Below are positions 23,621 to 44,093 of a stretch of 64,000 bases of DNA, piece after piece. The notes under the pieces are model-generated. The model worked only from the letters and a program-made list of their open reading frames with translations. It was not told the DNA's origin and ran no database searches. Position 1 is the stretch's first letter. Each line of letters opens with the position of its first letter. The stretch is taken from contig DATKEC010000117.1 in assembly GCA_035544575.1 (NCBI GenBank), forward strand, positions 11,865-75,864, given 5' to 3'. The translations under genes and the position numbers were made by a program. Source of the stretch: Acidimicrobiia bacterium (GTDB taxonomy: Bacteria; Actinomycetota; Acidimicrobiia; Spongiisociales; ZC4RG35).

Positions 23621-25225
23621 ATGGCGATCGCCGAGTTCCGAATCGACGGCGGGACCATCATCGACGGAACCGGGGAGCCCGGCCGGATCGGACGGGTGGC
23701 GATCCAGGGCGGACGCCTCATCGTCACCGACGATGCCGTCCCCGCCCGTCGCATCATCGACGCCGACGGGGCCATCGTTTCGCCTGGTTTCATCGACCTG
23801 CACACGCACTCGGACTTCACGCTGCCGCTCCACCCTGCTGCACCGGCGATGGTCCACCAGGGTGTCACGACGCAAGTCACCGGAAACTGTGGGTTCTCCC
23901 CGTTCCCCGCGCCGCCGGTACGCGTGAATGAGCTGATGGCACTCACGAAGTTCATCGACAAGGGAATCGATTGGGACCGGTGTGCGACTGCCGACGACTA
24001 CATCCGATACCTCGAAGACACGTCTCCGGCGACGAACGTCGTCCTGCAGGTCGGTCTGGGGACCGTCCGCGTGGCAACGATGGGCTTCGACCGACGCCCT
24101 CCCACTTCCCCGGAGAGGGCCCAGATGGAAAGGGAGATCTCGGCCGCGTTCGACGCTGGCGCCCTCGGAATCTCCAGTGGCCTCGTGTATGCCCCCGGTA
24201 GTTACGCCAGCGCTGACGAGGTCCGCGCGCTCGTTTCCGTCGCGGCAGCCCGGGGCGGGTTCTACTCCACCCACATCAGGAACGAGGGTGCGGAGTTACA
24301 GGCTTCGATCGAAGAGGCACTCGACACCGCGCGATCGGCCGGCGCTCCTCTCCAGATCAGCCATCACAAGGCGATCGGCTCCCCGAACTGGGGCTCGGTG
24401 AACTCCAGCCTCGCCCAGATCGACCGTGCCATCGATCTCGGTCAAGATGTCCTCGCCGATGTGTACCCGTACCGTGCGGGTAGCACCACGCTCACCCAGA
24501 TCCTGCCGACCTGGGCCCTCGAAGGCGGCATCCCAGCCATGCGAAGGAACCTCCAGGATCCGGCCGTGCGCAAGCGGATCGCCCACGAGATGACACGCCC
24601 AGACGCCCTCCGCGACTTCGACCCGAACGCGATCGTGCTCGCCGAGATCCCCCCGGGACCCAACGCGGGACATGAGGGTCGCTCCCTTGCCGAACTCGCC
24701 GCAGATGCCGGCCAGGATCCGATCGACGTTGCGTTCCGGCTACTCGTCGAAGAAGGTGCGGGAATCGTCATGGTGGTGTTCGGCATGGCGGAGGAGGACG
24801 TGAAGCGGGTGATGAGTCACCACGCGGTTGCGATTGCGAGTGATGGCTGGACGCTCGATCCTTCCACAGGCGGTACCCCGCATCCCCGCAGCTATGGGAC
24901 GTTCCCGCGCGTCCTCGGCAAGTATGTGCGGGAGGAAGGAGTGCTGTCACTCGAAGCAGCCGTACACAAGATGACCGGCCTCCCGGCGCGTCGTCTGCGT
25001 GGACTGCAGCGCGGCCACATCGAGTCGGGATTCGTTGCAGACATCGTCGTGTTCGATCCCGCAGCGATTGCCGATGTCGCCACGTATTCAGACCCACATC
25101 GATTCAGTGTCGGGCTGGAACATGTCTTCGTCGGCGGCGTCCCCGTCATCGAGGACCGTCTCGAAACCGGCGCCCGCCCTGGCTCGGTGTTAACCAGAGA
25201 GCGCCGAGCCGATCCAGTCGAGTGA
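23621..25225 (+). CDS. D-aminoacylase (N-acyl-D-amino-acid deacylase) family amidohydrolase.
   Basis: Real start at 23621 (MAIAEFRIDGGTIIDGTG...FIDLHTHSDF) with an AAAGGGGA RBS. Last gene of Dpp operon 2. Confidence 0.75.
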   Translation: MAIAEFRIDGGTIIDGTGEPGRIGRVAIQGGRLIVTDDAVPARRIIDADGAIVSPGFIDLHTHSDFTLPLHPAAPAMVHQGVTTQVTGNCGFSPFPAPPVRVNELMALTKFIDKGIDWDRCATADDYIRYLEDTSPATNVVLQVGLGTVRVATMGFDRRPPTSPERAQMEREISAAFDAGALGISSGLVYAPGSYASADEVRALVSVAAARGGFYSTHIRNEGAELQASIEEALDTARSAGAPLQISHHKAIGSPNWGSVNSSLAQIDRAIDLGQDVLADVYPYRAGSTTLTQILPTWALEGGIPAMRRNLQDPAVRKRIAHEMTRPDALRDFDPNAIVLAEIPPGPNAGHEGRSLAELAADAGQDPIDVAFRLLVEEGAGIVMVVFGMAEEDVKRVMSHHAVAIASDGWTLDPSTGGTPHPRSYGTFPRVLGKYVREEGVLSLEAAVHKMTGLPARRLRGLQRGHIESGFVADIVVFDPAAIADVATYSDPHRFSVGLEHVFVGGVPVIEDRLETGARPGSVLTRERRADPVE

Positions 25226-26428
25226 TCGAGACGGCATCAGTCCGTAGTGGTAGAAGTCAACCCGGGAAGCGCCTGCAGCTCGGGCAACCCGAACCTTGTC
25301 CATCAGGCTGGCCGCGCTGACAGTGTCCGGCCACATCGGGCGCAAGCCCACGCCGAACTCGACATCATCGATCTCGTCGAGATATCCCGCGATGAGGTGC
25401 CGGAGGTCTTCGGCCTCGGCGACATACCCGAGGATCTCGAAATCGTCGACGAGCGATGCAACCCGGGAGAGGTCGACGCCGAGCACCCACGCCTCCATCG
25501 GTGAGTCGCTGCTCCGCGTCGATCCACCCTTGGCCGACCCGCCGTGGGCGCTGTAGGTGAAACGAACACCAGCCGCCCTGGCAGTGTCTGCGACCTCGTC
25601 GACCAGAGTCGACACCGTTTCGAGGCGAGCCGCGACGAAACCGACGAGCTCTTCGCCGATCACGTCGACGAGCGCCTCCTGCGTCAGTGGGTCGTGCCCG
25701 CCGGTTCCCACCTCGAAGACCCCGTCGAGGTACCGGGCCACGTTTGCCTGCAACTGGTCGCCGTCCACGCCGTGGCGCCCGGCCGCTTGGCGGCACGACT
25801 CGCAGAAGCAGAGGCCGAGCAGGAAACGGGCGACAGGCCCCATGTCGACGAATGTGCGCTCGTGGTGATATCCGTGGTCGATGGTCCTGAAGTGAAGGGC
25901 TTCGGCGAAAATCGAGCTGACGGGATAGCGGCATATGTCTCCCGTGAGCGCCACCGCGTAGCGGCGGACCTCTTGGTTCGCCGGACAGAGATCTGTGAGG
26001 TATCGGTCACCGTACGCGTTCCGCGGAGCACACTCGGGGTGCGCTGTCGCGAGCCGCGAATTGTGCAGGTAGACGGTCCAGGCTCGCGTTGTCATGCCCC
26101 GAACGTCAGCAGCCCCGCACAGCATCGCCAGCACGTCCTGTTCGCGCTGCAGCGAGTCCTCCACCGGTACGAGTTTGCCGTACCGAGCAGGCTCCGGCCG
26201 GAAGAGGACCGTCCCGCCGTCGTGGAAATACACCTTGCGCACCGGGTTGTGGGGGAGGACGTCTCTGGCGTTGTGGTAGGCCGTGGCGAGAGACACCCCC
26301 CTCGCCCCTGACCTGTCACGGATCTCGTCCAGCGCACCGGCAAAACCGGTGTCGACCAGGTCGACCGCGAAGACGAACAAGGATGCGTCCACCCGTACCT
26401 CCCATCCTGCGAACCGGGCTTGGCGCAC
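25190..26428 (-). CDS. Hypothetical protein (412 aa, Cys cluster CFCESC). Possibly a TIM-barrel enzyme. Function unknown.
   Basis: Long ORF with coding-like composition and no convincing family match from memory. It overlaps the D-aminoacylase 3' end convergently by 36 nt. Confidence 0.45.
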   Translation of the reverse strand: MRQARFAGWEVRVDASLFVFAVDLVDTGFAGALDEIRDRSGARGVSLATAYHNARDVLPHNPVRKVYFHDGGTVLFRPEPARYGKLVPVEDSLQREQDVLAMLCGAADVRGMTTRAWTVYLHNSRLATAHPECAPRNAYGDRYLTDLCPANQEVRRYAVALTGDICRYPVSSIFAEALHFRTIDHGYHHERTFVDMGPVARFLLGLCFCESCRQAAGRHGVDGDQLQANVARYLDGVFEVGTGGHDPLTQEALVDVIGEELVGFVAARLETVSTLVDEVADTARAAGVRFTYSAHGGSAKGGSTRSSDSPMEAWVLGVDLSRVASLVDDFEILGYVAEAEDLRHLIAGYLDEIDDVEFGVGLRPMWPDTVSAASLMDKVRVARAAGASRVDFYHYGLMPSRSLDWIGSALSG

Positions 26429-26439
26429 GCTAACGCCCG

Positions 26440-26460
26440 CCGGATCGGATACGATTCCGG
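26440..26460. promoter_or_regulatory. Candidate operator ccggatcggatacgattccgg in the divergent region.
   Basis: It shares the GGATACGATTCC core with the direct repeats at 36489-36518. Confidence 0.35.
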
Positions 26461-26493
26461 CGTGCCGAGTCCTCCCTCACCGTCGACCGGTCG

Positions 26494-27765: not shown

Positions 27766-27778
27766 GAGGACGCAGATC

Positions 27779-28709
27779 CATGAGCGAACGATCCACCCGC
27801 CCCAGGACGAAGGTGCTCGTCACCGGGGCGGGCGGCTATATGGCGGCCCGACTGCTCCCGGAACTCGCCCGTGACTACGACCTCCGCCTCGTCGACGTGC
27901 GCGACGTGACCGCGGAGTACGACATCGCCGACGTCCACACCGCCGACCTCGCCTCACCGAACCGCGACGGGTACGGCCACCTCTTTGCAGATGTCGAAGT
28001 CGTCGTGCATCTCGGATACATCCGATCCAGCCCCAGAGGCGTCTACGACCAGACCATCCCCCATATCGATCGGTTCGAGGCCGAGATGGCGAACGTGCAG
28101 ATGGCATACAACGTCTACCGGGTCGCGCTCGACGCAGGTGTGCGGAGGGTCGTCGTGGCGAGTTCGAACCATGCCGCCGATTGGTATGAGCATGCACTCG
28201 TCCACTCAGGCCGCCGTGAGAATGTCACACCCTCCGATTTGCCGCTCTCAGACAACTTCTACGGGTGGTCGAAGGCTGCCTACGAACTCATGGCATTCCC
28301 GTTCGCTTGTGGCACCTTCGGCCGTTCACTGGAAGTGGTGCTCCTCCGCATCGGTGCCCCGAGGGACGTGGACGCAGCGGATCACATCGGCCGGGAGACG
28401 GGTACGCAACCGAGCATCCCGGGCGGCGTGGCGGGATTGAAACGCGACCTGGGCGCCTACCTGAGCCGAGCAGACGGAGTGCAGCTGTTCACGCGGGCGA
28501 TCGAGACCGAGGACATCCGCGACGAGCATGGCGTGCCATGGCTCATCGCGTACGGGATCAGCGACAACACACGCGCCTTTTGGTCCTTGGAGACAGCGAA
28601 ACGAGTGCTGGGCTACGAGCCACAGGACGACGGGGACATCAGGTTCGCGGATCAGGTAGGGCGATGGATCACCAACCCCGGCGATCCACGGCCGGGAAAG
28701 CTCGGATGA
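27779..28709 (+). CDS. NAD-dependent epimerase/dehydratase family protein (extended SDR).
   Basis: Real start at 27779 (MSERSTRPRTKVLVTGAGGYMAARL) with a GAGAGGA RBS. The ORF-track N-terminal extension is Arg-rich junk. Confidence 0.75.
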
Positions 28710-28722
28710 CCAAGGAGCATCG

Positions 28723-29469: not shown

Positions 29470-29475
29470 GCGTGA

Positions 29476-31149: not shown

Positions 31150-32121
31150 CTAGAACCAGGCGGCCTTGTCGACCACGTTGAGGAGCGGTTCTCCCGCACC
31201 GAACCGTGAGGCGTTGTCGGCGAGCACGGCGAACCGTCGCTCGTCGACGTACGGCCCAGCAACGGCGACGTGCGGCGTGAGGAGCACATTGGACATGGCC
31301 CACAACGGATGTTCCGTCGGCAGGGGTTCCTCCTCGAATACGTCGAGCCCGGCACCGGCGATCTCTCCCCGCTCGAGCGCCGAGACCAGATCGTCCAGTC
31401 GCACTGTCATGCCTCTACCGATGTTCACGAGATGGGCTGTCGACTTCATCATCGAGAGCCGGCGAGCATTGAACATGCCTTCCGTCTCCGGGGTGTGGGG
31501 CACGGTCAGTACGACAAAGTCTGCCTCGGGGATCAGACGATCGAGCTCGGCCGGCGGCGCCACCTCGTCAACCACGGGTGATCCATCTGTCACTCGGGCG
31601 TCGGTGGCGATCACTCTCGATCCGAACGTCTTCATCATTCTGGCGATCTCCGACCCGATGCCGCCGAGGCCCACCACCAGCACCGTCGCCTCGGGCAAAT
31701 GCACGACACCCTCGGCAGTCCGAATGGGATCCCATCTCCCTCGAGCCTGTTCGAGGACGTAGCGTGGGAACCCTCGTGCCAGCGCCAGCACCATCGCCAC
31801 CGCATGAGTGGCGACATGGTCGTTGTAGATCCCGCGGAAGTTCGTGACGACCACGGGGTGGGCCACCAGCGCATCGAAGAAGAAGCCGGCAGGCGGTGCG
31901 GCGGCCGGAGCCTGCAGCCAGCTCAGCCGCCTCGCCGCTTCGAGCTGAGCCCTCGACAAGGTGCCATAGGCAGCTTCGGCGTCGGCCAGCGCGGCGATCG
32001 CCTCCGCGTCGGACTCGGCTACCACGACCGACACTTCGGGCAGCCCTTCGCTGATCTGTTCCGCCCACCGACGGGTCAGCTCGTCCTGCGGCGGAAGCAT
32101 GACCAGCCGGTAGCCGCTCAC
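31150..32121 (-). CDS. D-isomer-specific 2-hydroxyacid dehydrogenase family protein.
   Basis: NAD-binding and catalytic domains are present. ATGA overlap with the upstream PTE-family gene. Confidence 0.8.
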   Translation of the reverse strand: MSGYRLVMLPPQDELTRRWAEQISEGLPEVSVVVAESDAEAIAALADAEAAYGTLSRAQLEAARRLSWLQAPAAAPPAGFFFDALVAHPVVVTNFRGIYNDHVATHAVAMVLALARGFPRYVLEQARGRWDPIRTAEGVVHLPEATVLVVGLGGIGSEIARMMKTFGSRVIATDARVTDGSPVVDEVAPPAELDRLIPEADFVVLTVPHTPETEGMFNARRLSMMKSTAHLVNIGRGMTVRLDDLVSALERGEIAGAGLDVFEEEPLPTEHPLWAMSNVLLTPHVAVAGPYVDERRFAVLADNASRFGAGEPLLNVVDKAAWF

Positions 32122-33035
32122 GACGGAAAGCTGAACAGCTGTCGCGGATTTTCGATGGTCATCGCGTCGATGTCCTCTCCGCTCAGCCCGCGGTCGCGTA
32201 GCAGTGGAAGGAAGCCGGTGATCACGTGGTCGTATCCCTGTCCTCCGTAGGCACGCAGGGCTCCGCGTTTGCCGACGTCGGTCGACAGGAGGATGCGGTC
32301 ACGGTGGCCTCGTCCGATGAGTTCAACGATCGCATCGGCTCTCTGCTCGTCGGATTGTTTGTCCAGTTGACCGATGGCGTCATACGCGATCCACACACCG
32401 AAACGGACGAGCTCCTCGTGGTAGTCCACATCGGGCGTCGTGTCGACGTGACCGATGACGAGCTTGTCGAGGTCTGCGCCAGCGTCGGCGAACGCCCGCG
32501 CCTGCTCCATGCCGATGCGCGTGAACAGGGCGTGAGTGGAGATCGGGACTTGGGTCTCCCGCTGGGCCGCGGCGCACGCTCGGATGACGCGTGCCTCCGC
32601 CGGCGAGATCGCCCGATGGTGGGTTCCGATCTCCCCGATGATCCCGGCGACCACATCCGTACCTGCGAAGCCCTCGGTGAGGTCGCTCACAAGCAGGCGG
32701 ACGATCTCCGTCTCACTCATGTCCGCTAGCCAAGGCGGATGAAACCGCTCCCAATAGAACCCGGTACCGGCAACGATGTTCACCCCGGCATCTGCCGCCA
32801 CCTCCCGAAGAAGCTCGGGGTCGCCGTTCAGCCCGTGAACGGTCTGATCCACGATCGTCCGCCCGCCCTTCTCTCGGTAGACGGCGAGTTCGTCACGCGC
32901 CACCTGGGCATCGCTCAGGATCATGTGCGAGTTGAGCGTGATGTCGTAGAGGTCGTGGAACACGTGCTCGTGCGGCAGCGTGAAGCCCAATTCAGCGGGA
33001 GCGATCTCCCCCAACACCGTTTGTACGTTTCTCAC
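32118..33035 (-). CDS. Phosphotriesterase-family (PTE-homology) metal-dependent hydrolase, paralog 1.
   Basis: N-terminal LPHEHV motif and a TIM barrel. GAGGAGGGG RBS upstream. Confidence 0.8.
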   Translation of the reverse strand: MRNVQTVLGEIAPAELGFTLPHEHVFHDLYDITLNSHMILSDAQVARDELAVYREKGGRTIVDQTVHGLNGDPELLREVAADAGVNIVAGTGFYWERFHPPWLADMSETEIVRLLVSDLTEGFAGTDVVAGIIGEIGTHHRAISPAEARVIRACAAAQRETQVPISTHALFTRIGMEQARAFADAGADLDKLVIGHVDTTPDVDYHEELVRFGVWIAYDAIGQLDKQSDEQRADAIVELIGRGHRDRILLSTDVGKRGALRAYGGQGYDHVITGFLPLLRDRGLSGEDIDAMTIENPRQLFSFPS

Positions 33036-33068
33036 CAGCTAGCCCCTCCTCTGGGGTCGAGTCCTCGG

Positions 33069-33845
33069 TCAGTACATGACCGACGCACCACTCACATTGA
33101 TCGTCGCTCCGCTGATGAAACTGGCGTGACGGGAGGCGAGAAACACCACGACAGCAGCCACCTCCTCGGGCTGACCGATCCGCCCCAGCGGACAGGCCTG
33201 GATCCCCGCCTCCACCATCTCGGCGGGGTTGTCGACGTGCTGCATCGGCGTGTCGATCTGTCCGGGCGACACGGTGTTCACGAGGATGCCGTGCGGGCCG
33301 AAATGCTTGGCGAATCCCCTCGCCATCGAGACCACGCCTCCTTTGGAAGCAACGTAGGCGTGACTACCGGAGGCGGGTCCGGTCAGCCACGCGCCGGACG
33401 TGAAGTTGATGATTCGTCCGCCGTCGCCGGCCTCCACCATCGCGTTCCCGACCGCCCGGTTCAGGAAGAAGCCCGACTTGAGGTTGACATCGAGTTGCAG
33501 GTCCCAATCATCCTCCGTCACGTCGTCCACGGGCTGGCGGCGTAGGACGGCTGCGACATGGGCGAGCGTCCACAACGACCCAACCGCGTCTTTCGCCTGC
33601 TCGACGAGATGCGGTATCGCCCCGATGTCGCGCAGGTCGAATCCGATGGCTACATGCCGATCGGGCGTGCCGATCTCGGCAATCGTCTGACGGACGCCTT
33701 GCTCGTCGCGATCGACCGCCACCACCCGCGCTCCGGCGCCAGCCATCGCCTTCGCCGTCGCTCGGCCGATCCCGCTGGCCGCTCCCGTGACGATCACCCC
33801 ACGGTCATCGAGACCCGCGCCGAGATTCCATCCACTGTCCGTCAT
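33069..33845 (-). CDS. SDR-family oxidoreductase.
   Basis: Glycine-rich NAD(P)-binding motif TGAASGIGRA. Confidence 0.85.
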   Translation of the reverse strand: MTDSGWNLGAGLDDRGVIVTGAASGIGRATAKAMAGAGARVVAVDRDEQGVRQTIAEIGTPDRHVAIGFDLRDIGAIPHLVEQAKDAVGSLWTLAHVAAVLRRQPVDDVTEDDWDLQLDVNLKSGFFLNRAVGNAMVEAGDGGRIINFTSGAWLTGPASGSHAYVASKGGVVSMARGFAKHFGPHGILVNTVSPGQIDTPMQHVDNPAEMVEAGIQACPLGRIGQPEEVAAVVVFLASRHASFISGATINVSGASVMY

Positions 33846-33869
33846 GCATTTCCCTCCTGAGCCCGGCGA

Positions 33870-34829
33870 TCAGCCGCGACTCACGTATTCGTCCAGTCGC
33901 CTGCCGTCGACCACCCGGTTCACCCAAGGAGTCTCCTCCCCCTGGAACGCGCGCAGGTTCTGTCGAAAGATGCGGGCGAGCCGCTCGCCGTATCGCGGAG
34001 TGTCGCCCGCCGAGTGGGGGGTGATCACGACATTGTTCATGTCCCACAGCGGCGAGTCCGACGGGAGCGGCTCGGTTTCGAAGACGTCGAGTCCCGCACC
34101 TCGCAGCCTTCCTCCCGCCAGAGCGTCGATGAGGGCAGCCTCATCGACAACGCTCCCGCGGCCGACGTTGATCACATAACCGTGACCAAGCGCCTCCAAC
34201 TCCTCCGCGCCGATCAGGTGACGGGTCTCCGACGACCCAGGGATCGTGATCACGAGAATGTCCGACAGCCTGCACATCTCGAGCAGTTCACCGGGCCCGA
34301 ACACCCGGGGAACCACACCGTTGTAATCGTTTGGGTGCCGCTTGAACCCGAGCAGGTCGACATCCCAGCCCTGTGCGCGTCTGGCGAACGCCTCGCCTAT
34401 TGTCCCCAGGCCCACGATCCCGATCGTGCTTCCCGCCAACTCGGGTCCTTCGCGCATGATCCACTCGTGCCGCATCCCGTCCCGGACGGCGTCGGCGATC
34501 CTCCTGGTGAGTGCGAGCAGCAGCCCGAACGCACCCTCCGCCACGCTCACGTGAACACCCGTGGCGGTCGTGAGCGCGACATCTTCTTGCTCGAACAACT
34601 CGAGCGGGTACTGCTCGAATCCGGCGCCCACGCCCTGAATCCAGGCCAGGGAGGGTTTGAGAAAGCGGTCGCGCCAGGTGTAGGTGAGGAGGATCTGGGC
34701 ACCGTCGGCGAGGGCGGCTTCGACTTCATCGTCACTCGACGCCTCGATGAGCTCCACGTCTGGTGTCGCCCTGACTTCTTCAACGAGCCCGGTGACACTC
34801 GCTGGATGTAGCACTGCCCGAATCGTCAT
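33870..34829 (-). CDS. D-isomer-specific 2-hydroxyacid dehydrogenase, second paralog. Real start at 34829 (MTIRAVL...).
   Basis: Motifs GIVGLGTIGEAFARR and VINVGRGSVVDEAALIDAL. GAGGAG RBS before 34829. Confidence 0.8.
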   Translation of the reverse strand: MTIRAVLHPASVTGLVEEVRATPDVELIEASSDDEVEAALADGAQILLTYTWRDRFLKPSLAWIQGVGAGFEQYPLELFEQEDVALTTATGVHVSVAEGAFGLLLALTRRIADAVRDGMRHEWIMREGPELAGSTIGIVGLGTIGEAFARRAQGWDVDLLGFKRHPNDYNGVVPRVFGPGELLEMCRLSDILVITIPGSSETRHLIGAEELEALGHGYVINVGRGSVVDEAALIDALAGGRLRGAGLDVFETEPLPSDSPLWDMNNVVITPHSAGDTPRYGERLARIFRQNLRAFQGEETPWVNRVVDGRRLDEYVSRG

Positions 34830-34884: not shown

Positions 34885-34900
34885 CCTAGAATCGATTCCA
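34885..34900. promoter_or_regulatory. Candidate operator cctagaatcgattcca (palindromic GAATCGATTC core) in the divergent region.
   Basis: Read directly from the sequence. It sits between the start of the 2-HADH operon and the cupin gene. Confidence 0.4.
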
Positions 34901-34951: not shown

Positions 34952-35410
34952 ATGACCACGTCATCGCCCGATGGAGATTCCCTCGCAGGAACCCAAAGTC
35001 GCGGGGAGTATCCGGCCACCAAGATGCACTTCTCGGAACTGACTGCCGAGGTTCTCCATGCGTTGAAACATGGAGACAGCGGCGACGCCCGGGGCCACGA
35101 CGGCCGCGTGATCGCGGTCAAGACCACCCCCGCCCGCGGCACCGCCTCCTCCATCGTCGTGGGGGCGGCGGCGCTCCCTCCCGGTTACAGCACACCCGCG
35201 CACCATCATCTCGCGGAAGAAGTCGCCGTCGTCATGTCGGGCAGCGGACACGTCGAGATCGACGGCGACGTTCACACGGTGACCGAGGGGACCGTTCTGG
35301 TGACTCCCTCAAACTCGACCCACATCACGACTGCGGATGAGTCCGGTCCACTCGTGATCCTGTGGTTCTACTCCCCGCCTGGGAGCGAGACACGCTGGCT
35401 GCGGGACTGA
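34952..35410 (+). CDS. Cupin-domain protein.
   Basis: Real start at 34952 with a GAGGAG RBS. A His-rich cupin motif (PAHHHLAEE ... H) is present. Confidence 0.6.
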   Translation: MTTSSPDGDSLAGTQSRGEYPATKMHFSELTAEVLHALKHGDSGDARGHDGRVIAVKTTPARGTASSIVVGAAALPPGYSTPAHHHLAEEVAVVMSGSGHVEIDGDVHTVTEGTVLVTPSNSTHITTADESGPLVILWFYSPPGSETRWLRD

Positions 35411-36488: not shown

Positions 36489-36518
36489 GGATACGATTCT
36501 TGGATACGATTCCAATCG
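36489..36518. promoter_or_regulatory. Direct repeat of GGATACGATTC (2 copies) followed by CAATCG. Candidate operator in the divergent region.
   Basis: The sequence ggatacgattc tt ggatacgattc caatcg was read directly. Confidence 0.4.
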
Positions 36519-36678: not shown

Positions 36679-37575
36679 GTGAATCGGGGATCCTGGGCGG
36701 CGCTCTGGGCGCTGAGCGTCGGTTGGGGAACTGTCGGCGTGGCAACGCGTGCGGCGCTCGAGAACGGGGTCGGCAGCCTCACCATCGTCGCCGGGCGCCT
36801 CGTCATCGCCACCGCTCTCGTCGCCGCCGCCCAGTTGTTCCTGCGGCGCCGGATGTCGTGGGATCCGACCCTCGTTCGGACGGGGACGGTCATGGCCATC
36901 GTCGGTGTGGCGATGCCGTACGTGCTCTTCAACTACGCCTACAAGTACGCCTCGGCTGGATTCGTTGGACTGATGGCGGCGCTGGCACCGCTGGGCACCG
37001 CCATCTTCGCCCACTTTCTGCTACCCGGTGAGAGGATCGGCCGCCGCCGGCTGTTCGGATTGAGTTTGGCCATCGCCGGCGTTGCCGTGCTGCTCTTGGC
37101 AGGAGACAGTGGGCTGGCGGTCGGCGGTCGGCCATCGCTGGCGATCGCTTGGTCGATACCGGGCGTGGCGGCGTTCTCCTTCTCCACGGTGTACGCCAAG
37201 CGCCAGACCGCGTCACTCGCCGGATTCGACGTGTTGGTCGTCCAGTTCGCGGTGGCGACGGCCCTGATGCTTGCCCCGACCTTCCTGATGGAGGGAGTGC
37301 CTCGCCTCGACGCCGAATCGTGGTGGCTCCTCGTTTACCTGGCGATCGGCTCCACCGTCGTCCCGCTGATGCTGTTCTACTGGGTGCTCCAGCGAAACAC
37401 CGCTGCCCAGACGGCGTTGGTCGGCTTCATCGTTCCACTCGTCGCGGTCATCGCCGGCGTCGTGCTCATGAGCGAGAAGGTCGGAACGGGTCTCATCCTC
37501 GGAGGCGCCGCCATCATCACGGGGGTGATCGTCGCGGACAGAAGCGGGCGTGATGCCACCACCGTCCCAGCTTGA
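36679..37575 (+). CDS. DMT-superfamily (EamA-like) transporter.
   Basis: GTG start with a GGGAGA RBS. About 10 predicted TM helices in two EamA-like halves. Confidence 0.75.
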   Translation: MNRGSWAALWALSVGWGTVGVATRAALENGVGSLTIVAGRLVIATALVAAAQLFLRRRMSWDPTLVRTGTVMAIVGVAMPYVLFNYAYKYASAGFVGLMAALAPLGTAIFAHFLLPGERIGRRRLFGLSLAIAGVAVLLLAGDSGLAVGGRPSLAIAWSIPGVAAFSFSTVYAKRQTASLAGFDVLVVQFAVATALMLAPTFLMEGVPRLDAESWWLLVYLAIGSTVVPLMLFYWVLQRNTAAQTALVGFIVPLVAVIAGVVLMSEKVGTGLILGGAAIITGVIVADRSGRDATTVPA

Positions 37576-37576
37576 T

Positions 37577-38341
37577 TTAGCGGGTGGCGGTCCATCCTCC
37601 GTCGACGTACCACGTCTGACCGGTCACATACCGTGCCCGGTCGGACAGGAGGAAGGTGACGACCTCCGCGATCTCATCAGGTGACGCGAACCGCCCCAGC
37701 GGTGTACGCGCATTGTCGGCATCGACGTCGAGGAGGCCTGCGGCAAGCCACTGGTCGTAAAACTCCGTTCGGGTCTGGCCCGGTCCGACCGCATTCACGC
37801 GCACACCGTGTGGAGCGAGTTCCACCGCCAGCACACGAGTGAGGGCGTTGATTCCTGCCTTGGCGGCCGCATATGCCGGACGGCGAGGAAACACTGTCTC
37901 GGCGGCCATCGACGATATGGACACGATGTCGCCACCGTCGGACGTGGCCATGTGCGCTCCGAACACGGAACTGCACAGGTACGCCGAGAACAGATTGATA
38001 CGGATGGTCCGGTCCCATTCGTCGTCCGTGGACTCGAGCGCCGGCTTGTTCAGCCGCAGACCGGCGTTGTTGACGAGGACGTCGACCCGTCCGAACCGAT
38101 CCAAGGTGGCGTCCAGACAGGCACGGACGCTGTCTTCGTCCCCCACGTCGAGCGGGAATCCCAGCGCAGCGATCCCCGACTCGTCCAAGGAACGAACGGC
38201 CTCGGCGGCCGCGGCATCGTCGATGTCGCCGATGACGACCGCGCCCCCGCGCCCTCCGAACATCCGGGCACAGGCCCGGCCGATTCCTCGACCCCCTCCG
38301 GTGACGAGGGCGACTTTCCCCGTGAACTCCAGGTCGGACAT
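37577..38341 (-). CDS. SDR-family oxidoreductase. Real start at 38341 (MSDLEFTGKVALVTGGGRGIG).
   Basis: TGxxxGIG motif. The upstream ORF-track extension is Arg-rich junk. Confidence 0.85.
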   Translation of the reverse strand: MSDLEFTGKVALVTGGGRGIGRACARMFGGRGGAVVIGDIDDAAAAEAVRSLDESGIAALGFPLDVGDEDSVRACLDATLDRFGRVDVLVNNAGLRLNKPALESTDDEWDRTIRINLFSAYLCSSVFGAHMATSDGGDIVSISSMAAETVFPRRPAYAAAKAGINALTRVLAVELAPHGVRVNAVGPGQTRTEFYDQWLAAGLLDVDADNARTPLGRFASPDEIAEVVTFLLSDRARYVTGQTWYVDGGWTATR

Positions 38342-39027
38342 CACTCGCGTCGCCACCCATGGGCCAGCCAGCCGGCATCCACCGCGAAGACATGACCGGT
38401 GACGGCTCCCAGGTCCGGAGCTGACAGGCTGGCCACGGCGGCGGCTACATCGTCGTCGTCGACCAATCGACCGAGTGGCAACACACCCGGGACTCCGTCG
38501 AGCGACCCACCAGCGGGTTGCCAGGATTCGGTAGGCCCCACCATCACCACGTTCACCCTGACGCCCGCTGCACCCCATTCAGCGGCCAATGCCTTGCTGG
38601 CCGCGACGAGCCCGGCGGAGACACAGGCCTCCATCGCGCGTCCAGGCAACCCGACGCCGGCGGTGGCGGAGACGACGTTGAGGATGTGAAGAGAGCTTCC
38701 GCTTTCGATGGAGACGCGCGCCGCTTCGCGGCATGCAGAGAACGTACTGTTCAGTCCTTCGTCGAGTGCGGCCGCGAAACCGCGCACCCCGGCGACCACC
38801 GGAACCCGTTCGAACTCGCAGAGGTTGTTGACCAGCAACGTCGCGCCGGCGGTGAACGCATCAGTCACGACATCCGAGACGGTGCCGCGTCCGAAGTCTG
38901 TCTGGGCGATCCGACGCACGTCGAATCCGTCGCGTTCGAGCCGGCGACAAATGGCGGGACCCGCGCCCACGTCGGCACGGAGAACTACCGCGCGTTGTCT
39001 GTGCTGAAACCCTCGGTCGTCAGCCAT
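38341..39027 (-). CDS. Atypical SDR-like protein (divergent or absent glycine motif).
   Basis: 228 aa with the SDR C-terminal pattern. Its stop overlaps the downstream SDR start. Confidence 0.5.
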   Translation of the reverse strand: MADDRGFQHRQRAVVLRADVGAGPAICRRLERDGFDVRRIAQTDFGRGTVSDVVTDAFTAGATLLVNNLCEFERVPVVAGVRGFAAALDEGLNSTFSACREAARVSIESGSSLHILNVVSATAGVGLPGRAMEACVSAGLVAASKALAAEWGAAGVRVNVVMVGPTESWQPAGGSLDGVPGVLPLGRLVDDDDVAAAVASLSAPDLGAVTGHVFAVDAGWLAHGWRRE

Positions 39028-39063
39028 TTGCGATCTTCCCCATTGCTACTGGGATTCCGGGTC

Positions 39064-39077
39064 TGGGAACGTTACCA
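39064..39077. promoter_or_regulatory. Candidate operator tgggaacgttacca (near-palindrome) upstream of the SDR/SDR/class IV aminotransferase operon.
   Basis: Its reverse complement tggtaacgttccca matches the box at 46836-46849. Confidence 0.45.
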
Positions 39078-39116
39078 CTGCTAGGGTCAACGGAGCCCGA
39101 ACGCGGGAGGAAATCG

Positions 39117-39860
39117 GTGGGCACACTCGACGATCGCAGGATCCTGGTCATTGGCGGCTCGGCTGGAATGGGTTATGCCATCGCCGAAGCGGCGATCGAT
39201 GAGGGAGCGATTGTCGCAATCGCCGCCCGGAACCCTGACCGTCTCGAGGAGGCTGCTCGGCGACTCGAAGAACGGGGCGATCGACCCGTTCGGCGTGCGT
39301 CGCTCCGAGTCGAGGATCGCGACGCCGTCATGAGATTGATGGAGTCGTTCGCACCATTCGATCACCTCGCGCTGCCGGGTTCGACGGTTGAACCGCGTAC
39401 GTACGACTCGATTGACGACGAGACGGCACGGGCATCCTTCGACAGCAAGTTCTGGGGGCCGTTCTGGACCGTATACGACGCCCGAGTCTTGATGCGGCGC
39501 GGGGGCAGCATCGTGCTCTTCTCTGGTGTCGCCGCCCGCCGGCCGGTGCCCGGCTACGTGATCGGAGCCTGCATCAACGGAGCGCTCGAGGCCGCCACCC
39601 GTTCGCTCGCGCTCGAGCTCGGCAGCCACGGCCTACGGATCAACACGATCGCTCCCGGATTCGTCATGACGCCGCTCTTCGACACGCTCCACGAGGCCGA
39701 AGACGTCGCCCGGCGGGTGGCCGAGGCCGAGTCCAGACTTCCCGTGGGCCGGGTGGGCCGACCCGACGAGGCGGCGTCGGCTGCGCTGTTGTTCATGACG
39801 AATGGGTTCCTCACCGGCCAGGTGCTGGTGCTCGACGGCGGCCTACTGGCGACGAGTTGA
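39117..39860 (+). CDS. SDR-family oxidoreductase. GTG start.
   Basis: GGGAGGA RBS 5 nt before GTG 39117. IGGSAGMG motif. Confidence 0.8.
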   Translation: MGTLDDRRILVIGGSAGMGYAIAEAAIDEGAIVAIAARNPDRLEEAARRLEERGDRPVRRASLRVEDRDAVMRLMESFAPFDHLALPGSTVEPRTYDSIDDETARASFDSKFWGPFWTVYDARVLMRRGGSIVLFSGVAARRPVPGYVIGACINGALEAATRSLALELGSHGLRINTIAPGFVMTPLFDTLHEAEDVARRVAEAESRLPVGRVGRPDEAASAALLFMTNGFLTGQVLVLDGGLLATS

Positions 39861-39871
39861 CGAACCCGGGC

Positions 39872-40600
39872 ATGCCGCTCGAAGGCACGGTGGCAATCGT
39901 GACCGGTGCGGGCTCCGGCATCGGGCGGGCGGTGGCACGCAACTTGGCAGACGCCGGCGCCGCAGTCGCCCTTGCGGCGCGGTCACTGGATCGGCTGGAG
40001 ACCGCCGCGGAAGACATCCGCACCCGCGGGGGCCAGGCGATTGCTGTTCGATGCGACGTCACCTCCGAGTCCCAGGTGCTGGCCATGTTCGACGAAGTCG
40101 AGGCAGAAATGGGACCGGTCGATGTTCTCGTGAACAACGCTGCCACGCTCTCGTCGGCCGCCATCGAAGACACCACGCTGGCGGATTGGCAGCACGTGCT
40201 CGACGTCAACCTGACCGGGGCATTTCTGTGCATGCGGGAGGCGATTCGTCGGATGAAGCCGCGCAGCCGGGGTCGGATTCTCAACATCGGCAGCATCTCG
40301 GCCTCAGTGCCGCGCCCGATGACTGCTTCGTACGCGGCATCGAAGGCGGGTCTGGTCGGGCTCAGCCGGACGGCCGCGATCGAGGCGCGACGCCACGGAA
40401 TCGCGGTCGGGTGCCTGCATCCTGGCAATGTTCGGACGGAGACACGACAAGATATGAGCGATCCGATCAACCGGGAGAACATGATGTCGGTCGACGAGGT
40501 GGCTGAACTCGCCAGAGCCATGCTGTTGGTATCTCAGACCACGGTCGTGTGGGAACTGACGGCGCTGCCGATCGAGCAGGCGTTCCTCGGCCGTGGATGA
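39872..40600 (+). CDS. SDR-family oxidoreductase. A TTG start at 39857 is also possible.
   Basis: MPLEGTVAIVTGAGSGIGRAVA motif. Confidence 0.85.
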   Translation: MPLEGTVAIVTGAGSGIGRAVARNLADAGAAVALAARSLDRLETAAEDIRTRGGQAIAVRCDVTSESQVLAMFDEVEAEMGPVDVLVNNAATLSSAAIEDTTLADWQHVLDVNLTGAFLCMREAIRRMKPRSRGRILNIGSISASVPRPMTASYAASKAGLVGLSRTAAIEARRHGIAVGCLHPGNVRTETRQDMSDPINRENMMSVDEVAELARAMLLVSQTTVVWELTALPIEQAFLGRG

Positions 40601-40638
40601 GTACCGTTTCCAAGGAGTCGAGAGGAGACCCCGACCTG

Positions 40639-41538
40639 ATGGACGAATCGACCGCCTACTTCAACGGTGAGTGGGTACCGCTCTCGCAGGTACGAATCGA
40701 TCCTGCCGATCGGGGGTTCGTCACCGGTGATGCCGTCTTCGATGCAGCTCGCACGTTCGGCGGCGTCGAGTTCCTGCTCGAAGAACACGTCGATCGGCTG
40801 TATCGGTCCCTACACGTCGCCCGGATCGATCCCGGTCTCCCACGCGCTCACATGCTGGGGATCTCACGTGAGGTGATCGACAGGAACCAGCAGCTCATCC
40901 CCGATGTCGGCGATTTCCAGGTCTGGCAGGGTGTGACCCGCGGACCCGGACGATGGGCACATGAGGCCGGTCCACCCACCGTGTACGTGAAGGTGTCGGG
41001 GATCGACTTCGCCAAGTACGCCCACCTGTACGCCACCGGCGCACACGCCATCGTCACCCGGGCATCGTCGCTGCCCTACGGCGCAGCAGATCCCAAGTTG
41101 AAGACACACAGTCGTATGCACTTCAACCTCGCCGAACTCGAGGCCGCGCGATCGGATCGGGCTGGCTGGCCGGTTCTGTGCGACGCCATGGGGAACCTGG
41201 GCGAAGGCAGCGGCTACAACCTCTTCGTCGTGCGAGACGGAGGCGTCTCGACTCCGCCGGCGGGCTCAGTATTGGCAGGGATTTCCCGCGCCTACACGCT
41301 TGAACTCGCTGCCTCGTTGGGAATCAGTACGACCGAAACACTCCTACAGCCGTTCGACCTCTACACCGCCGACGAGGCCTTCTTCACCGGCACGAGCCCG
41401 TGCATCCTGCCTGTCACCCGGGCGGACGGTCTCACCATCGGAAGCGGCCAGCCAGGACCCATCACGTCGATGCTGTTGCACGCGTGGGGAGACAGGGTCG
41501 GCCTCGACATCGCGGCTCAAGCGATCAAGTACGCCTGA
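40639..41538 (+). CDS. Class IV PLP aminotransferase (branched-chain or D-amino-acid aminotransferase family). An alternative start at 40597 forms an ATGA overlap.
   Basis: GAGGAG RBS before 40639. N-terminus MDESTAYFNGEWVPLSQVRIDPADRGFVTGD is typical of fold type IV. Confidence 0.75.
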   Translation: MDESTAYFNGEWVPLSQVRIDPADRGFVTGDAVFDAARTFGGVEFLLEEHVDRLYRSLHVARIDPGLPRAHMLGISREVIDRNQQLIPDVGDFQVWQGVTRGPGRWAHEAGPPTVYVKVSGIDFAKYAHLYATGAHAIVTRASSLPYGAADPKLKTHSRMHFNLAELEAARSDRAGWPVLCDAMGNLGEGSGYNLFVVRDGGVSTPPAGSVLAGISRAYTLELAASLGISTTETLLQPFDLYTADEAFFTGTSPCILPVTRADGLTIGSGQPGPITSMLLHAWGDRVGLDIAAQAIKYA

Positions 41539-41544
41539 GGGCTC

Positions 41545-42810: not shown

Positions 42811-42905
42811 GTAAGTCGTTTGTGTCCTCCGCGATCAGTGCCACCACACCTCCTTCGTTTACAAACTGGGCATCGCCGGCCCGGACGCCTACCCGACCCT
42901 CGGGC

Positions 42906-42917
42906 TGGAAACGTTAC
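42906..42917. promoter_or_regulatory. Candidate operator box ggaaacgttact in the divergent region between the DAO gene and enolase-2.
   Basis: Same GGAAACGTT core as the other boxes. Confidence 0.3.
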
Positions 42918-42959
42918 TATCCTCGGTTCAGAACGAGCTTTCCGGTCAGGAGTCCGAGC

Positions 42960-44093
42960 ATGAGCGCAGTGGCGAGCGTCACACCGATTTCCGTCGCATA
43001 TCCCGAGAGCAACGATGCAGGGTTCACGCGATATCTCACGTTGTGTCGAATCGAATCCACGGACGGCGTCGTTGGTTGGGGCGAGTGCATCCCGATGTCG
43101 GGTTCGGGCTTTCCTGAGGCATGCCGCGCCACCGAGGTTCTCATCCAGGGCCTCGCCGACCTCATCATCGGCAGCGATCCCGTCGCCAACCTCGCAACGG
43201 TGGACAAGATCAAGAAACGCACATGGTGGTACGGGCCGGAGGGCATCGCCGCGTTCGCTCTCAGCGCAATCGACATGGCACTCTGGGATCTGAAGGGGAA
43301 GGTGCTCGGCCGCCCTCTCGTCGACCTCCTCGGGGGCGCGGTCCGCAAGGACTTTCCCGCTATTGCAGCCACCCACGCCACCCTTTCGGACATCGAAGCC
43401 GAGGCAGCGAGGCACGGCGACATGATCCGCGCCGGGTTCGCCGGTGTGAAAGTCGGCTTCAGCGAGCGCAGCGGCGGTCTCGGATTCAACGTCGAACGCG
43501 ACATCAACTTCATGCGGCTGCTGAGAGAAGCGTGCGGTCCCGACGCGCAGCTGATGATCGATCGGGGCCAGTCACTTCGCTGGGACGTCTCGTCGGCCAT
43601 CCGGCGCATCAGGGGCTTCGAGGAGTACGGCCTCCTTTGGATCGAGGAGCCCTTGGAGCCGTCTGACATCGAGGGCTTTCGTCGCATCAGACAGACCACG
43701 ACCACGCTCATCGCCACCGGGGAACGGGAGTGGCACATGCGGGGGTACCACCGGTTGCTCGGGGAAGGCGTCGTCGATGTCGTCGGATGCGACCCAGGTC
43801 GGAGTGAGGGCGTCACCGGGTTCCAACAGCTCGTCAAGTTGGTCGAACAGCACAATCTCTGGTTCAACGCGCACTCGTGGAGTAGCGCCATCAACACCGC
43901 GGCGAGTCTCGCCGTCTCAGCGACGTCTCATCGTGCCCTCACCTTCGAGCTGAAGCCGGAGGAGAACCCCATGCAGCACGAGTTGGTGGACACACCCTTC
44001 GAGGCACGCGACGGGGTCGTCCACGCCACCCTCACGAAGCCGGGCCTCGGCATCGAAGTCAACGAGGCCGTGGTCCGGAAGTACGAGTTGTGA
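42960..44093 (+). CDS. Enolase superfamily (MR/MLE family) protein, paralog 2. Real start at 42960.
   Basis: MSAVASVTPISVAYPESNDAGFTRYLTLCRIESTDGVVGWGE closely parallels the N-terminus of the gene at 3285. The ORF-track upstream extension is not protein-like. Confidence 0.8.
   Translation: MSAVASVTPISVAYPESNDAGFTRYLTLCRIESTDGVVGWGECIPMSGSGFPEACRATEVLIQGLADLIIGSDPVANLATVDKIKKRTWWYGPEGIAAFALSAIDMALWDLKGKVLGRPLVDLLGGAVRKDFPAIAATHATLSDIEAEAARHGDMIRAGFAGVKVGFSERSGGLGFNVERDINFMRLLREACGPDAQLMIDRGQSLRWDVSSAIRRIRGFEEYGLLWIEEPLEPSDIEGFRRIRQTTTTLIATGEREWHMRGYHRLLGEGVVDVVGCDPGRSEGVTGFQQLVKLVEQHNLWFNAHSWSSAINTAASLAVSATSHRALTFELKPEENPMQHELVDTPFEARDGVVHATLTKPGLGIEVNEAVVRKYEL

Follow-up and report, generated by a model that had tools for sequence, protein, structure and literature searches.

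We analyzed a window of 64,000 nucleotides from an Acidimicrobiia bacterium (GenBank assembly GCA_035544575.1, contig DATKEC010000117.1, positions 11,865 to 75,864 of the forward strand), with focus on positions 23621–44093, where a first-pass annotation had noticed a dense gathering of enzyme families associated with D-stereochemistry. The flagged genes apparently constitute one LacI-type regulon of about 35 kb, having at least 10 transcription units, and we tentatively propose, with a chance that we rate as a little less than even, that this regulon imports and oxidatively degrades a sugar-derived compound. Formally, the key intermediate would belong to the N-acyl-D-alpha-amino acids, with a 2-acylamino-2-deoxy-aldonic acid or a glycoside of such an acid as the most likely candidate. 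Genes were called using the G+C content at third codon positions (GC3) together with the length of open reading frames (ORFs), with starts refined from orthologue lengths; every predicted start falls on an ATG, and all coordinates given are those of the ORFs within the window. The labels L001–L102 denote comparison loci.

A LacI-type operator is shared by the transcription units

The palindrome TGGWWWCGWWWCCA was found at eight sites in the window when allowing at most one mismatch, compared with 0.12 sites expected, and none of 100 shuffles reached that count. Seven of the eight sites are located in promoter-bearing intergenic regions. The motif was furthermore 32-fold enriched in cluster loci, with 36 sites in 187 kb (12 loci) versus 5 sites in 840 kb (91 other loci), and individual sites were found at matching intergenic positions in relatives, including those having only about 65% identity. 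Scans for sigma-70 promoters and intrinsic terminators gave no more sites than in shuffles.

Following the sites along the window, GGGAAACGATTCCA at 10075..10088 lies in a divergent promoter upstream of an ATP-binding cassette (ABC) operon and a CoA-transferase gene, with a two-mismatch site close by at 10243, and the next site, at 14977, is located upstream of the gene for an E1 beta subunit. Thereafter follow TAGAATCGATTCCA at 34887..34900 in the divergent promoter between 2-Hacid_dh and cupin genes, the perfect match TGGATACGATTCCA at 36501..36514 between FMN_dh and EamA, TGGGAACGTTACCA at 39064..39077 between two genes for short-chain dehydrogenases/reductases (SDRs), TGGAAACGTTACTA at 42906..42919 between DAO and MR_MLE, a further site at 43046–43059 inside the 5′ end of the MR_MLE gene, and TGGTAACGTTGCCA at 46836–46849 upstream of the second of two PTE genes. 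A weaker variant with two mismatches, CGGATACGATTCCG, occupies 26446..26459 in the divergent promoter between the genes for a glycoside hydrolase (GH)-like protein and a pyridoxal phosphate (PLP) enzyme, and at this promoter position L092 has a one-mismatch site, AGGAATCGATTCCA; a two-mismatch variant is also present in the promoter between a class III aminotransferase gene and the importer operon. In the relatives, TAGAATCGATTCCA is found identical and at the equivalent position in L003–L007 and L091–L093, and in reverse orientation in L011 and L012, while sites without any mismatch occur upstream of the E1 beta gene in L093 and in the divergent region between the E1 beta and GH-like genes in L095.

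LacI-family operators are palindromes with a central CG, and regulators of this type are typically sugar-responsive. Here, a 14-bp palindrome with a central CG is present in several promoters and a LacI-family gene (11658..12683, plus strand, with Pfam LacI and Peripla_BP domains) is located at the cluster edge. Its product is the sole regulator found in the window, with RbsR as the best NCBIfam match (190 bits, below cut-off), and is a candidate repressor that would bind TGGWWWCGWWWCCA. The palindrome in multiple promoters and the LacI gene at the edge are features held in common with LacI sugar-catabolic regulons; what is unusual for such a regulon is the content, with its aminotransferases, amine dehydrogenase, DAO protein and E1/lipoyl proteins.

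Gene order is conserved within one clade

The order of about 30 genes, covering approximately 12.7–45.7 kb of the window, is repeated in at least 10 independent metagenome assemblies at 50–95% protein identity, with collinear orthologous clusters at L001, L003–L007, L011, L012, L091–L093 and L095. The cluster has been kept within a clade that comprises uncultured Acidimicrobiia and relatives among the Actinomycetota, and a literature search found no description of it. The loci were obtained by a metagenome scan with the FMN_dh profile, followed by tblastn of the window proteins against 90 loci. Among these, the cluster was present only where FMN_dh was at least 59% identical and was missing at all 78 loci with FMN_dh at 54% identity or less, the contexts there being unrelated. 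Around orthologues of the class IV aminotransferase having 92%, 79% and 66% identity, both gene order and strand switches were kept, whereas orthologues at 60% identity or less were standalone genes in unrelated contexts; the distant relatives of these two proteins are unusable for inference of function. No plasmid matched the 20 kb region by megablast, and scanning GTDB representative genomes for FMN_dh gave just one partial match of 59% and one match of 32%, with no close relative.

The kept order, with variable members in parentheses, is Epimerase, Amdase, (gamma-glutamyltransferase, GGT, or DAP_DH_C), 2HADH, PTE, SDR, 2HADH, cupin, FMN_dh and (EamA), continuing with SDR, SDR, SDR, (SDR), class IV aminotransferase, DAO, MR_MLE, SDR and AP_endonuc_2. 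The left side, comprising the ABC importer, Amidohydro_3, GH-like, DSD-like, Epimerase and Amdase genes, is also found in L091, L092, L093 and L095 at 50–94% identity, with the importer kept together with the amidohydrolase in L091, L093 and L095 and the epimerase-family gene kept in L007, L091–L093 and L095. The 2-Hacid_dh/SDR/PTE/2-Hacid_dh operon is collinear wherever it is covered (L003, L005–L007, L012, L091–L093 and L095; L004 and L011 end inside it), the cupin gene is kept at every locus covering its position, and the MR_MLE/SDR/AP_endonuc_2 operon is kept in L003 and L005–L007, with L004 stopping within the SDR gene. In the closest relatives, of 92% identity, extra PTE, SBP_bac_5 and glyoxalase genes were seen between DAO and MR_MLE (L003 12280–15665 and L004 8910–12295), and this insertion has its own operator copy (TGGATACGATTCCA at L003 15067).

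Members that vary are GGT, the DSD-like gene encoding the PLP enzyme (none in L095), EamA and one SDR. GGT is a variable accessory, being 61–69% identical or truncated in L005 and L091, and with its position taken by a DAP_DH_C protein in L007, L092, L093 and L095. DAP_DH_C paralogues of 32–37% identity are found inside the cluster in L007, L012, L092, L093 and L095, whereas the DAP_DH_C amine dehydrogenase of the window (2,4-diaminopentanoate-dehydrogenase-like, 57819–59150, minus strand) lies outside the core. The E1 beta, E1 alpha and lipoyl genes are upstream of the importer in the window and, as orthologues of 49–68% identity, inside the cluster in L093 (7726–9967) and L095 (7609–9859), there placed between the GH-like gene and the gene for the PLP enzyme or the epimerase. 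EamA has another position in L093 and is lacking in L007, while an orthologue (70%) of the class III aminotransferase is separated from the ABC operon of L095 by a single DUF3179 gene. Modules thus relocate yet stay in the neighbourhood, which argues for selection on clustering and not merely for shared ancestry.

The first-pass annotation had noted the dense co-localisation and suggested that the genes take part in a pathway, and a functional link between them is supported. The co-localisation is non-random because the gene order recurs in at least 10 assemblies and because the palindrome is found in the promoter regions of most units, and the functional link agrees with the kept synteny, with reshuffled modules remaining local and with units sharing a LacI-type operator. 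An alternative would be a patchwork of independent small catabolic operons for different acids, held by vertical inheritance in one lineage and having a general carbon-source regulator in common. Such a patchwork would fit with the many strand switches and the at least 10 transcription units, with the confinement of the cluster to one clade, with GGT, the DSD-like gene, EamA and one SDR coming and going, with the standalone aminotransferase relatives of at most 60% identity elsewhere, and with the lack of any scanned protein at an NCBIfam equivalog cut-off. We nonetheless find it distinctly unlikely, as the same operator precedes nearly every unit with its position kept in relatives of about 65% identity, the relocated modules remain nearby, and subsets of the same families accompany the GH-like gene in other phyla.

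The amidohydrolase and the PLP enzyme

The amidohydrolase (Amidohydro_3, D-aminoacylase type, 23621–25225, plus strand) is encoded by the final gene of the ABC importer operon. It scored 311 bits to the D-aminoacylase 1M7J (AfDam), 298 bits to the N-acyl-D-Glu deacylase 3GIP (BbDam) and 224 bits to PpOngB, a deacetylase of N-acetylglucosaminic acid (GlcNAc1A). Upon alignment to 1M7J, through the motifs HTH, NCG, THIR, SHHK and SDG, the metal ligands His67, His69, Cys96, His220 and His250 and the catalytic Asp366 were found to be kept, as they are in all orthologues. The residues binding the alpha-carboxylate and acetamido groups, with roles as described earlier (PMC12017989), are also all kept (Tyr192, Lys252, Tyr283, Ser289 and Arg377), and so is Thr290. 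The enzyme hence has the metal ligands, catalytic Asp and substrate-anchoring residues in common with AfDam and BbDam, from which it differs by a longer insertion domain and by the pairing of its gene with the GH-like gene. Because of that longer insertion, a fragment search for the loop-2 specificity residue (the equivalent of Leu298, Arg295 or Gln298) gave no alignment. The use of Ser or Thr as discriminator between OngB and D-aminoacylases was rejected as not being general, since the Burkholderia pseudomallei enzyme found in a sugar locus has Thr. A divergent subtype of Amidohydro_3, lacking the Cys96 ligand (GQDG for GNCG) as well as SHHK, was seen in L094 (GCA_041746105.1, JBGTHP010000026.1) and in L098 (Nonomuraea).

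The PLP enzyme (Ala_racemase_N and D-ser_dehydrat domains, 26494–27765, plus strand) belongs to the ‘cryptic D-serine deaminase’ clade of fold-type III, with 269 bits to 3GWQ against 96 bits to D-Thr aldolase and 92 bits to D-3-hydroxyaspartate aldolase. It has both of the DSD1-family domains, and the HAKTT lysine and the HPC motif are conserved in comparison with 3GWQ. In the light of the structures of chicken D-serine dehydratase and D-threonine aldolase, we take its C-terminal HxC to be a metal site of the dehydratase type. BhcC of the beta-hydroxyaspartate cycle was also considered for this protein and was rejected at 109 bits versus a cut-off of 690.

The entry enzymes are, with the full D-aminoacylase signature in one and the D-Ser-deaminase clade assignment of the other, true members of families acting on (2R)-2-(acyl)amino acids, as had been proposed. 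FMN_dh (PF01070, 407 bits; 35415–36473, minus strand), an FMN-dependent 2-hydroxyacid oxidase/dehydrogenase, is of a family whose enzymes are L-specific and not D-specific.

A GH-like barrel protein is paired with the amidohydrolase

Convergent with the amidohydrolase gene and divergent from that of the PLP enzyme is a gene for a protein of 400 residues (25190..26392, minus strand) with no Pfam hit and no family detectable at sequence level. Homologues were found at 44–94% identity, and among 1.84 billion representatives the family accounts for 2324 clusters formed at 50% identity. Its AlphaFold model is confident (pLDDT 92.2, pTM 0.92) and displays a (beta/alpha)8 barrel of the glycoside-hydrolase type. 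All fold matches are likewise of glycoside-hydrolase type, with the peptidoglycan hydrolase Cwp19 as the best (27.4), followed by GH151 (25.8), the GH153 domain of PgaB (24.4) and GH42 (20–24). The protein has an invariant C...CxCxxC motif, which resembles the structural zinc site of GH42 enzymes.

The pairing of GH-like protein and amidohydrolase holds down to 45% identity, as seen in L094, where the two are accompanied by an SDR, a MocA, a RidA and a D-ser_dehydrat protein. Members of the GH-like family are also encoded in loci for sugar ABC systems and sugar acids in Actinomycetota, Rhizobiaceae and haloarchaea (L094, L096–L098, L101 and L102), where the neighbouring gene is usually that of an MR_MLE dehydratase, of RidA or of a PLP enzyme of the DSD-like kind. 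The Nonomuraea locus is an operon of Amidohydro_3, DSD-like, RidA and GH-like genes. In Rhizobium the corresponding genes are LacI, sugar ABC, two sugar-phosphate isomerase/epimerases (presumably AP_endonuc_2), two MocA, GH-like, a deacylase of AstE/AspA type that is not orthologous to the amidohydrolase of the window, RidA, DSD-like and Amidohydro_2, and in Aureimonas they are sugar ABC, Amidohydro_2, DSD-like and GH-like. Haloferax and Halomicrobium both have sugar ABC, GH-like, MR_MLE and SDR genes, thereafter followed by RidA, Eda and KdgK in Haloferax or by an aldolase of dihydrodipicolinate synthase (DHDPS) type in Halomicrobium.

For the PLP enzyme, the best plasmid homologue was found in B. 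pseudomallei, at 44% identity (NZ_CP009155.1, 177137–192423; L100). There, annotated genes for the deaminase, a D-aminoacylase, RidA, 2-dehydro-3-deoxygalactonokinase (DgoK) and the aldolase of 2-keto-3-deoxy-6-phosphogalactonate (KDPGal; DgoA) are situated between GH88/KduI/KduD genes and a PL8 lyase gene. This locus looks like a route to 2-keto-3-deoxygalactonate (KDGal) resembling that of the proteobacterial ong cluster, perhaps for N-acetylgalactosaminate from glycosaminoglycans. The deaminase, the adjoining D-aminoacylase with the same signature and the setting in carbohydrate catabolism are what it has in common with the window, which differs in being without RidA, without the finishing kinase and aldolase and without polysaccharide lyases. 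In Klebsiella, a gene of the PLP family is found with RidA and an amino-acid ABC system, so the family also works in amino-acid contexts.

Assignment of the other diagnostic enzymes

The class IV aminotransferase (Aminotran_4, 40639–41538, plus strand) was compared with published class IV fingerprints (Table 1 of PMC8401098), and its motifs TxxxxFDAAR, QVW and TRGPGRWAH match none of those for branched-chain aminotransferases (BCAT), D-amino-acid aminotransferases (DAAT) or (R)-amine transaminases. For BCAT, defined by YxxxxF[ED]Gx[KR] and YxR...[LMVI]G[VL] (PMC8401098), the protein instead has TxxxxFDAAR and QVW...WAH and is without Gly38, Tyr95 and Arg97. For DAAT, with FxxxxYxV[IVA][KR] and HxY...[RK]xH (PMC8401098), just the last two positions of the first motif fit, and the [RK]xH site reads WAH with an Arg one residue earlier. 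For the (R)-amine type, with HxxxxYD[VT]x[STAHP] and [FY]V[EQAWNS] (PMC8401098), only one residue of the first motif (Asp) and two of the second (VW) fit. The protein belongs to an uncharacterised subfamily of 1356 proteins at E ≤ 1e-20, from Actinomycetota and Methylomirabilota/Rokubacteria, having a fingerprint of its own: xxDxVFD[AV]xR (TxxxxFDAAR in the window), x[VI]W, TRGxGRW[AT] and [GS]TSPC. Outside of the present clade, genes of the subfamily are standalone. The first-pass annotation had set a D-AAT fingerprint against a BCAT fingerprint as a check of its hypothesis; as the protein carries neither and has its own motifs, the outcome neither refutes nor supports a role in D-amino acid metabolism.

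The Amdase-like protein (Amdase/Asp_Glu_race, 28723–29469, plus strand) has Cys at both catalytic positions, corresponding to 74 and 188 of arylmalonate decarboxylase (AMDase), where its ACTS and LSCT align; the meaning of these positions is known from the AMDase G74C variants. Having both catalytic cysteines, it is predicted to act as a two-thiol racemase or isomerase instead of as a decarboxylase. The ectoine-pathway EutA and AMDase itself were rejected as assignments, with scores far below cut-off and both catalytic cysteines being present.

MR_MLE (enolase superfamily, 42960–44093, plus strand) had, as its 60 best PDB matches, acid-sugar dehydratases and uncharacterised proteins, bar a few mandelate racemases and one 3,6-anhydro-L-galactonate cycloisomerase. 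Its best NCBIfam match was galactonate dehydratase at 164 bits, versus 51 bits for o-succinylbenzoate synthase (OSBS). It groups almost entirely with enzymes of the acid-sugar-dehydratase type, to which we would assign it, and the earlier hint of an N-succinyl-amino-acid racemase (NSAR) or dipeptide epimerase is not supported by either the PDB matches or the NCBIfam scores. The DAO-family FAD oxidoreductase (PF01266, 41545–42810, minus strand) reached 167 bits to the DadA subfamily (cut-off 383) and 121 bits to ThiO, with a glycine oxidase as its best PDB match at 73 bits.

A putative route for amino-sugar acids

In the ong pathway, the D-aminoacylase-fold OngB and the fold-type III PLP enzyme OngC convert GlcNAc1A to glucosaminic acid (GlcN1A) and further to 2-keto-3-deoxygluconate (KDG), a route that its discoverers liken to D-amino acid catabolism; the ong cluster, used for oxidised chitin, is found in Pseudoalteromonas prydzensis and other Gamma- and Betaproteobacteria (PMC9537276, PMC12017989). 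The present cluster shares with it a D-aminoacylase-fold deacylase, a fold-type III PLP deaminase, a glycosidase-type protein and an importer in a repressor-controlled catabolic locus. It differs by having no TonB receptor, by a Pfam-less GH-like barrel of another family, by an ABC importer and LacI-type control, by AfDam-like residues in the amidohydrolase, by about 20 further redox and amine enzymes, and by its actinobacterial host. Neither the GH20 OngA, the RidA OngD, KdgK, an SSS transporter nor an RpiR regulator was found among the window proteins.

In formal terms, a 2-amino-2-deoxy-D-aldonic acid counts as a D-alpha-amino acid bearing a hydroxyl at the beta position, which explains how ‘D-’ families could appear among sugar-type genes that share a LacI-type operator. 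Genes of this latter sort in the window include three dehydratase-type MR_MLE paralogues, two PTEs, a fuconolactonase-like Amidohydro_2, rhaM, MocA and two AP_endonuc_2. The LacI-type control, the GH-like partner, the lactonase-type, mutarotase, MocA and AP_endonuc_2 genes and the settings in which the GH-like and deaminase genes occur across phyla are all pointing to a sugar-derived substrate.

From the observed family assignments, synteny, operator motif and its positions, GH-like fold and cross-phylum contexts, we infer the identity of the regulator, each of the catalytic steps and the substrate as follows. The compound would be imported by the Opp/Dpp-type ABC system, whereupon the cytoplasmic GH-like barrel would cut a glycosidic bond, the D-aminoacylase-fold amidohydrolase would remove the N-acyl group, and the ‘cryptic D-Ser deaminase’ PLP enzyme would eliminate the beta-hydroxyl and ammonia to give a 2-keto-3-deoxy acid. 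Lactones may be opened by the PTE-type hydrolases, and non-aminated aldonates and keto-deoxy acids could be processed by the MR_MLE dehydratase, the SDRs and AP_endonuc_2. Hydroxy, amino and oxo acids would finally be funnelled by the D- and L-2-hydroxyacid dehydrogenases, DAO, the aminotransferases, the amine dehydrogenase, the two-thiol racemase and the E1/lipoyl proteins.

Several findings weigh against this proposal. The pocket of the amidohydrolase does not look like that of OngB, having Val, Ile and Thr where PpOngB has Ala193, Ala256 and Ser292 (the fourth PpOngB residue, Gln298, falls in the loop for which no alignment was obtained), and at the published specificity positions it looks AfDam-like (AfDam has Phe, Met and Thr); its score to true D-aminoacylases (311 bits) is also higher than that to PpOngB (224 bits). 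The binding protein of the importer is nearest to HbpA, GsiB and DppA, among them binders of glutathione and dipeptides, at about 146 bits. RidA, a KDG/KDGal kinase and an aldolase of the 2-keto-3-deoxy-6-phosphogluconate (KDPG) type were not found among the window proteins, a search that for RidA included small ORFs. The glycosidase activity of the GH-like protein is predicted from its modelled fold, the L095 lineage carries no DSD-like gene in its cluster, and in Klebsiella the PLP family stands in a plain amino-acid-transporter context. The amine-handling enzymes and the E1/lipoyl proteins are, finally, not needed by a simple amino-sugar-acid route.

A large share of the organic nitrogen in soil and sea, where Acidimicrobiia are abundant and mostly uncultured, consists of D-amino acids and amino sugars, and this share is degraded slowly. 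It is possible, albeit doubtful, that the cluster encodes, under LacI control, an undescribed pathway with some 30 genes that acts on amino sugars in oxidised or N-acylated form or on related glyco-amino acids, for example chitin oxidised by lytic polysaccharide monooxygenases (LPMOs) or cell-wall-derived aminoaldonates. Such a pathway would draw on a GH-like family and a class IV aminotransferase subfamily that would both be new, and on an E1/lipoyl-carrier step lacking a counterpart in proteobacterial ong. If the route for amino-sugar acids proposed above is right, annotations as ‘D-amino-acid’ enzymes in such genomes would often signal catabolism of amino-sugar acids, which would change the reading of metagenomes, and the logic of ong would reach beyond Proteobacteria. 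The analysis also makes the regulon testable, as it provides the operator, a repressor candidate and the roughly 30 genes concerned, and it adds two enzyme families yet to be characterised that could be expressed and assayed directly, one of GH-like barrels and one of class IV aminotransferases. The cluster is hence a good target for pathway discovery.

D-amino acids, peptides or conjugates as alternative substrates

The first-pass annotation had instead suggested import of N-acyl-D-amino acids or D-amino-acid peptides, cleavage by the D-aminoacylase, conversion of D-amino acids to 2-oxo acids by deamination, oxidation, transamination or racemisation, and balancing of the pools by 2-hydroxyacid dehydrogenases. 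The amidohydrolase, with its canonical D-aminoacylase signature including hydrophobic Val and Ile together with Thr290, ending the operon of a Dpp/Gsi-like importer, would suit such a function. So would a PLP family that also deaminates D-Ser and D-Thr (PMC9537276) and that in Klebsiella accompanies an amino-acid ABC system, as well as a two-thiol racemase-type protein, a DAO protein with DadA as best NCBIfam match (167 bits, cut-off 383), the presence of GGT, class IV aminotransferase and E1 proteins, and the failure to find RidA, KdgK and Eda in the window. We still consider this interpretation unlikely, as the operator and regulator are of the typically sugar-responsive LacI type, the GH-like protein is tightly paired with the amidohydrolase, GGT is variable, MR_MLE is of dehydratase type instead of an NSAR or dipeptide epimerase, the aminotransferase lacks the DAAT fingerprint, the partner genes reside in sugar-acid loci of other phyla, and peptidase and muropeptide-recycling families were not found in the window.

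A peptide or muropeptide as the substrate, the more specific suggestion made earlier, was not borne out. Scanning about 60 window proteins with Pfam revealed none of the LdcA, MpaA, AmpD, NagZ, MurQ and VanX-type families. Recycling of peptidoglycan stem peptides (MppA/Opp, LdcA, MpaA, the YcjG epimerase, AmpD and NagZ) has the Opp-type importer in common with the window, and Cwp19 is the best fold match of the GH-like protein, but none of the enzymes defining that recycling is present and the enolase-superfamily protein of the window is not of the YcjG type. What is supported of the overall interpretation is the linkage of the genes, the D-family entry enzymes and the many members engaged in alpha-carbon chemistry of 2-oxo, 2-hydroxy and 2-amino acids, whereas the peptide substrate and the epimerase hint are not supported.

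A sugar–amino-acid conjugate was considered as another alternative, being opine-like, Amadori-type or gamma-glutamyl, with a secondary amine split by a DAO-type oxidase or a dehydrogenase and the two halves degraded separately. SBP_bac_5 systems are known importers of such compounds, and the matches here included the opine/agrocinopine binders AgaA and AccA and CntA-type models, although these similarities of the binding protein are weak and generic. The presence of DAO, the 2-hydroxyacid dehydrogenases, GGT, lactonase-type PTEs, MocA and AP_endonuc_2 beside amino-acid-type enzymes would fit with a conjugate, and so would the LacI-type control. As no equivalog-level match to opine or Amadori enzymes was obtained with NCBIfam, and as it would be left unexplained why GH-like protein, D-aminoacylase and deaminase are conserved as a trio, we regard a conjugate as a long shot.

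Gene inventory of the window

The G+C content is about 65% and uniform along the window. Pfam recovered every one of the enzyme families listed earlier, each in its assigned place. In addition to those described above, they were GGT (29476–31122, minus strand), the two 2-Hacid_dh proteins (31150–32121 and 33870–34829, minus strand) and three SBP_bac_5/Opp-type ABC systems (4434–9977, 17928–23606 and 52131–57752). The second of these is the Opp/Dpp-type importer of the cluster (17928..23606, plus strand), with an SBP_bac_5 protein, two ATPases and two permeases. None of the window proteins scanned against NCBIfam reached a specific (equivalog) family cut-off, and one SDR passed solely that of the broad ‘glucose 1-dehydrogenase’ subfamily.

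Unmentioned before, the flagged span also holds the GH-like protein, an NAD-epimerase, a PTE, five SDRs, a cupin and EamA, and just right of it are a sixth SDR, AP_endonuc_2 and the second PTE. The NAD-dependent epimerase/dehydratase-family protein is encoded at 27780..28709 (plus strand), followed on the minus strand by an operon (31150..34829) of 2-Hacid_dh (33870–34829), SDR (33069–33845), a PTE/PHP-type hydrolase (32118–33035) and 2-Hacid_dh (31150–32121). Then come the small cupin protein (34952..35410, plus strand), the EamA-family transporter (36679..37575, plus strand) and a conserved pair of SDRs (37577–38344 and 38341–39027; 37577..39027, minus strand). The SDR at 38341–39027 matches the SDR profile only from about position 95, with the N-terminal nucleotide-binding part being divergent; the same partial match was seen in all relatives (217–254 residues), and the protein may be a non-catalytic partner subunit. 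The class IV aminotransferase is the last gene of a plus-strand operon (39117..41538) after two SDRs (39117–39860 and 39857–40600), and MR_MLE (42960–44093) heads another (42960..45741, plus strand) together with SDR (44090–44863) and the TIM barrel AP_endonuc_2 (44860–45741). The second PTE-family hydrolase is found at 45731–46780 on the minus strand.

The wider window further contains the LacI regulator, E1 alpha and beta with a free lipoyl protein, a class III aminotransferase, Amidohydro_1, Amidohydro_2, rhaM, MocA, a P450, a second AP_endonuc_2 and two more MR_MLE paralogues. The free-standing lipoyl protein (12694–12933), E1 alpha (12946–13953) and E1 beta (13926–14939) of a 2-oxoacid dehydrogenase form a minus-strand unit (12694..15338) with no E2 or E3 gene alongside; as a part of the regulon, E1 alpha, E1 beta and the lipoyl protein of about 79 residues are conserved, likewise with no E2 catalytic domain or E3 nearby. 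Next to this unit are an Amidohydro_1 protein (15043..16452, minus strand) with a weak NagA_N match and Xaa-Pro dipeptidase as best NCBIfam match (100 of 500 bits), and the class III (omega-type) aminotransferase (16459..17817, minus strand), divergent from the ABC operon.

The right flank at 47729–52070, with Amidohydro_2 (fuconolactonase-like, 93 bits), P450, the rhaM mutarotase, MocA and AP_endonuc_2, is collinear in L005 and has no operator site, and is therefore probably a separate deoxy-sugar module. Past the catabolic region, a DUF2652 plus Polyketide_cyc2 protein and a DUF222 protein at 59783–62341 appear to have no relation to the cluster. At the opposite end, two dehydratase-type MR_MLE paralogues (1–537, minus strand, and 3285–4409, plus strand) adjoin another Opp-type ABC operon and have between them a gene for an N,N-dimethylformamidase-beta-like protein (DMFA2_C, 764 residues; 607–2901, minus strand).

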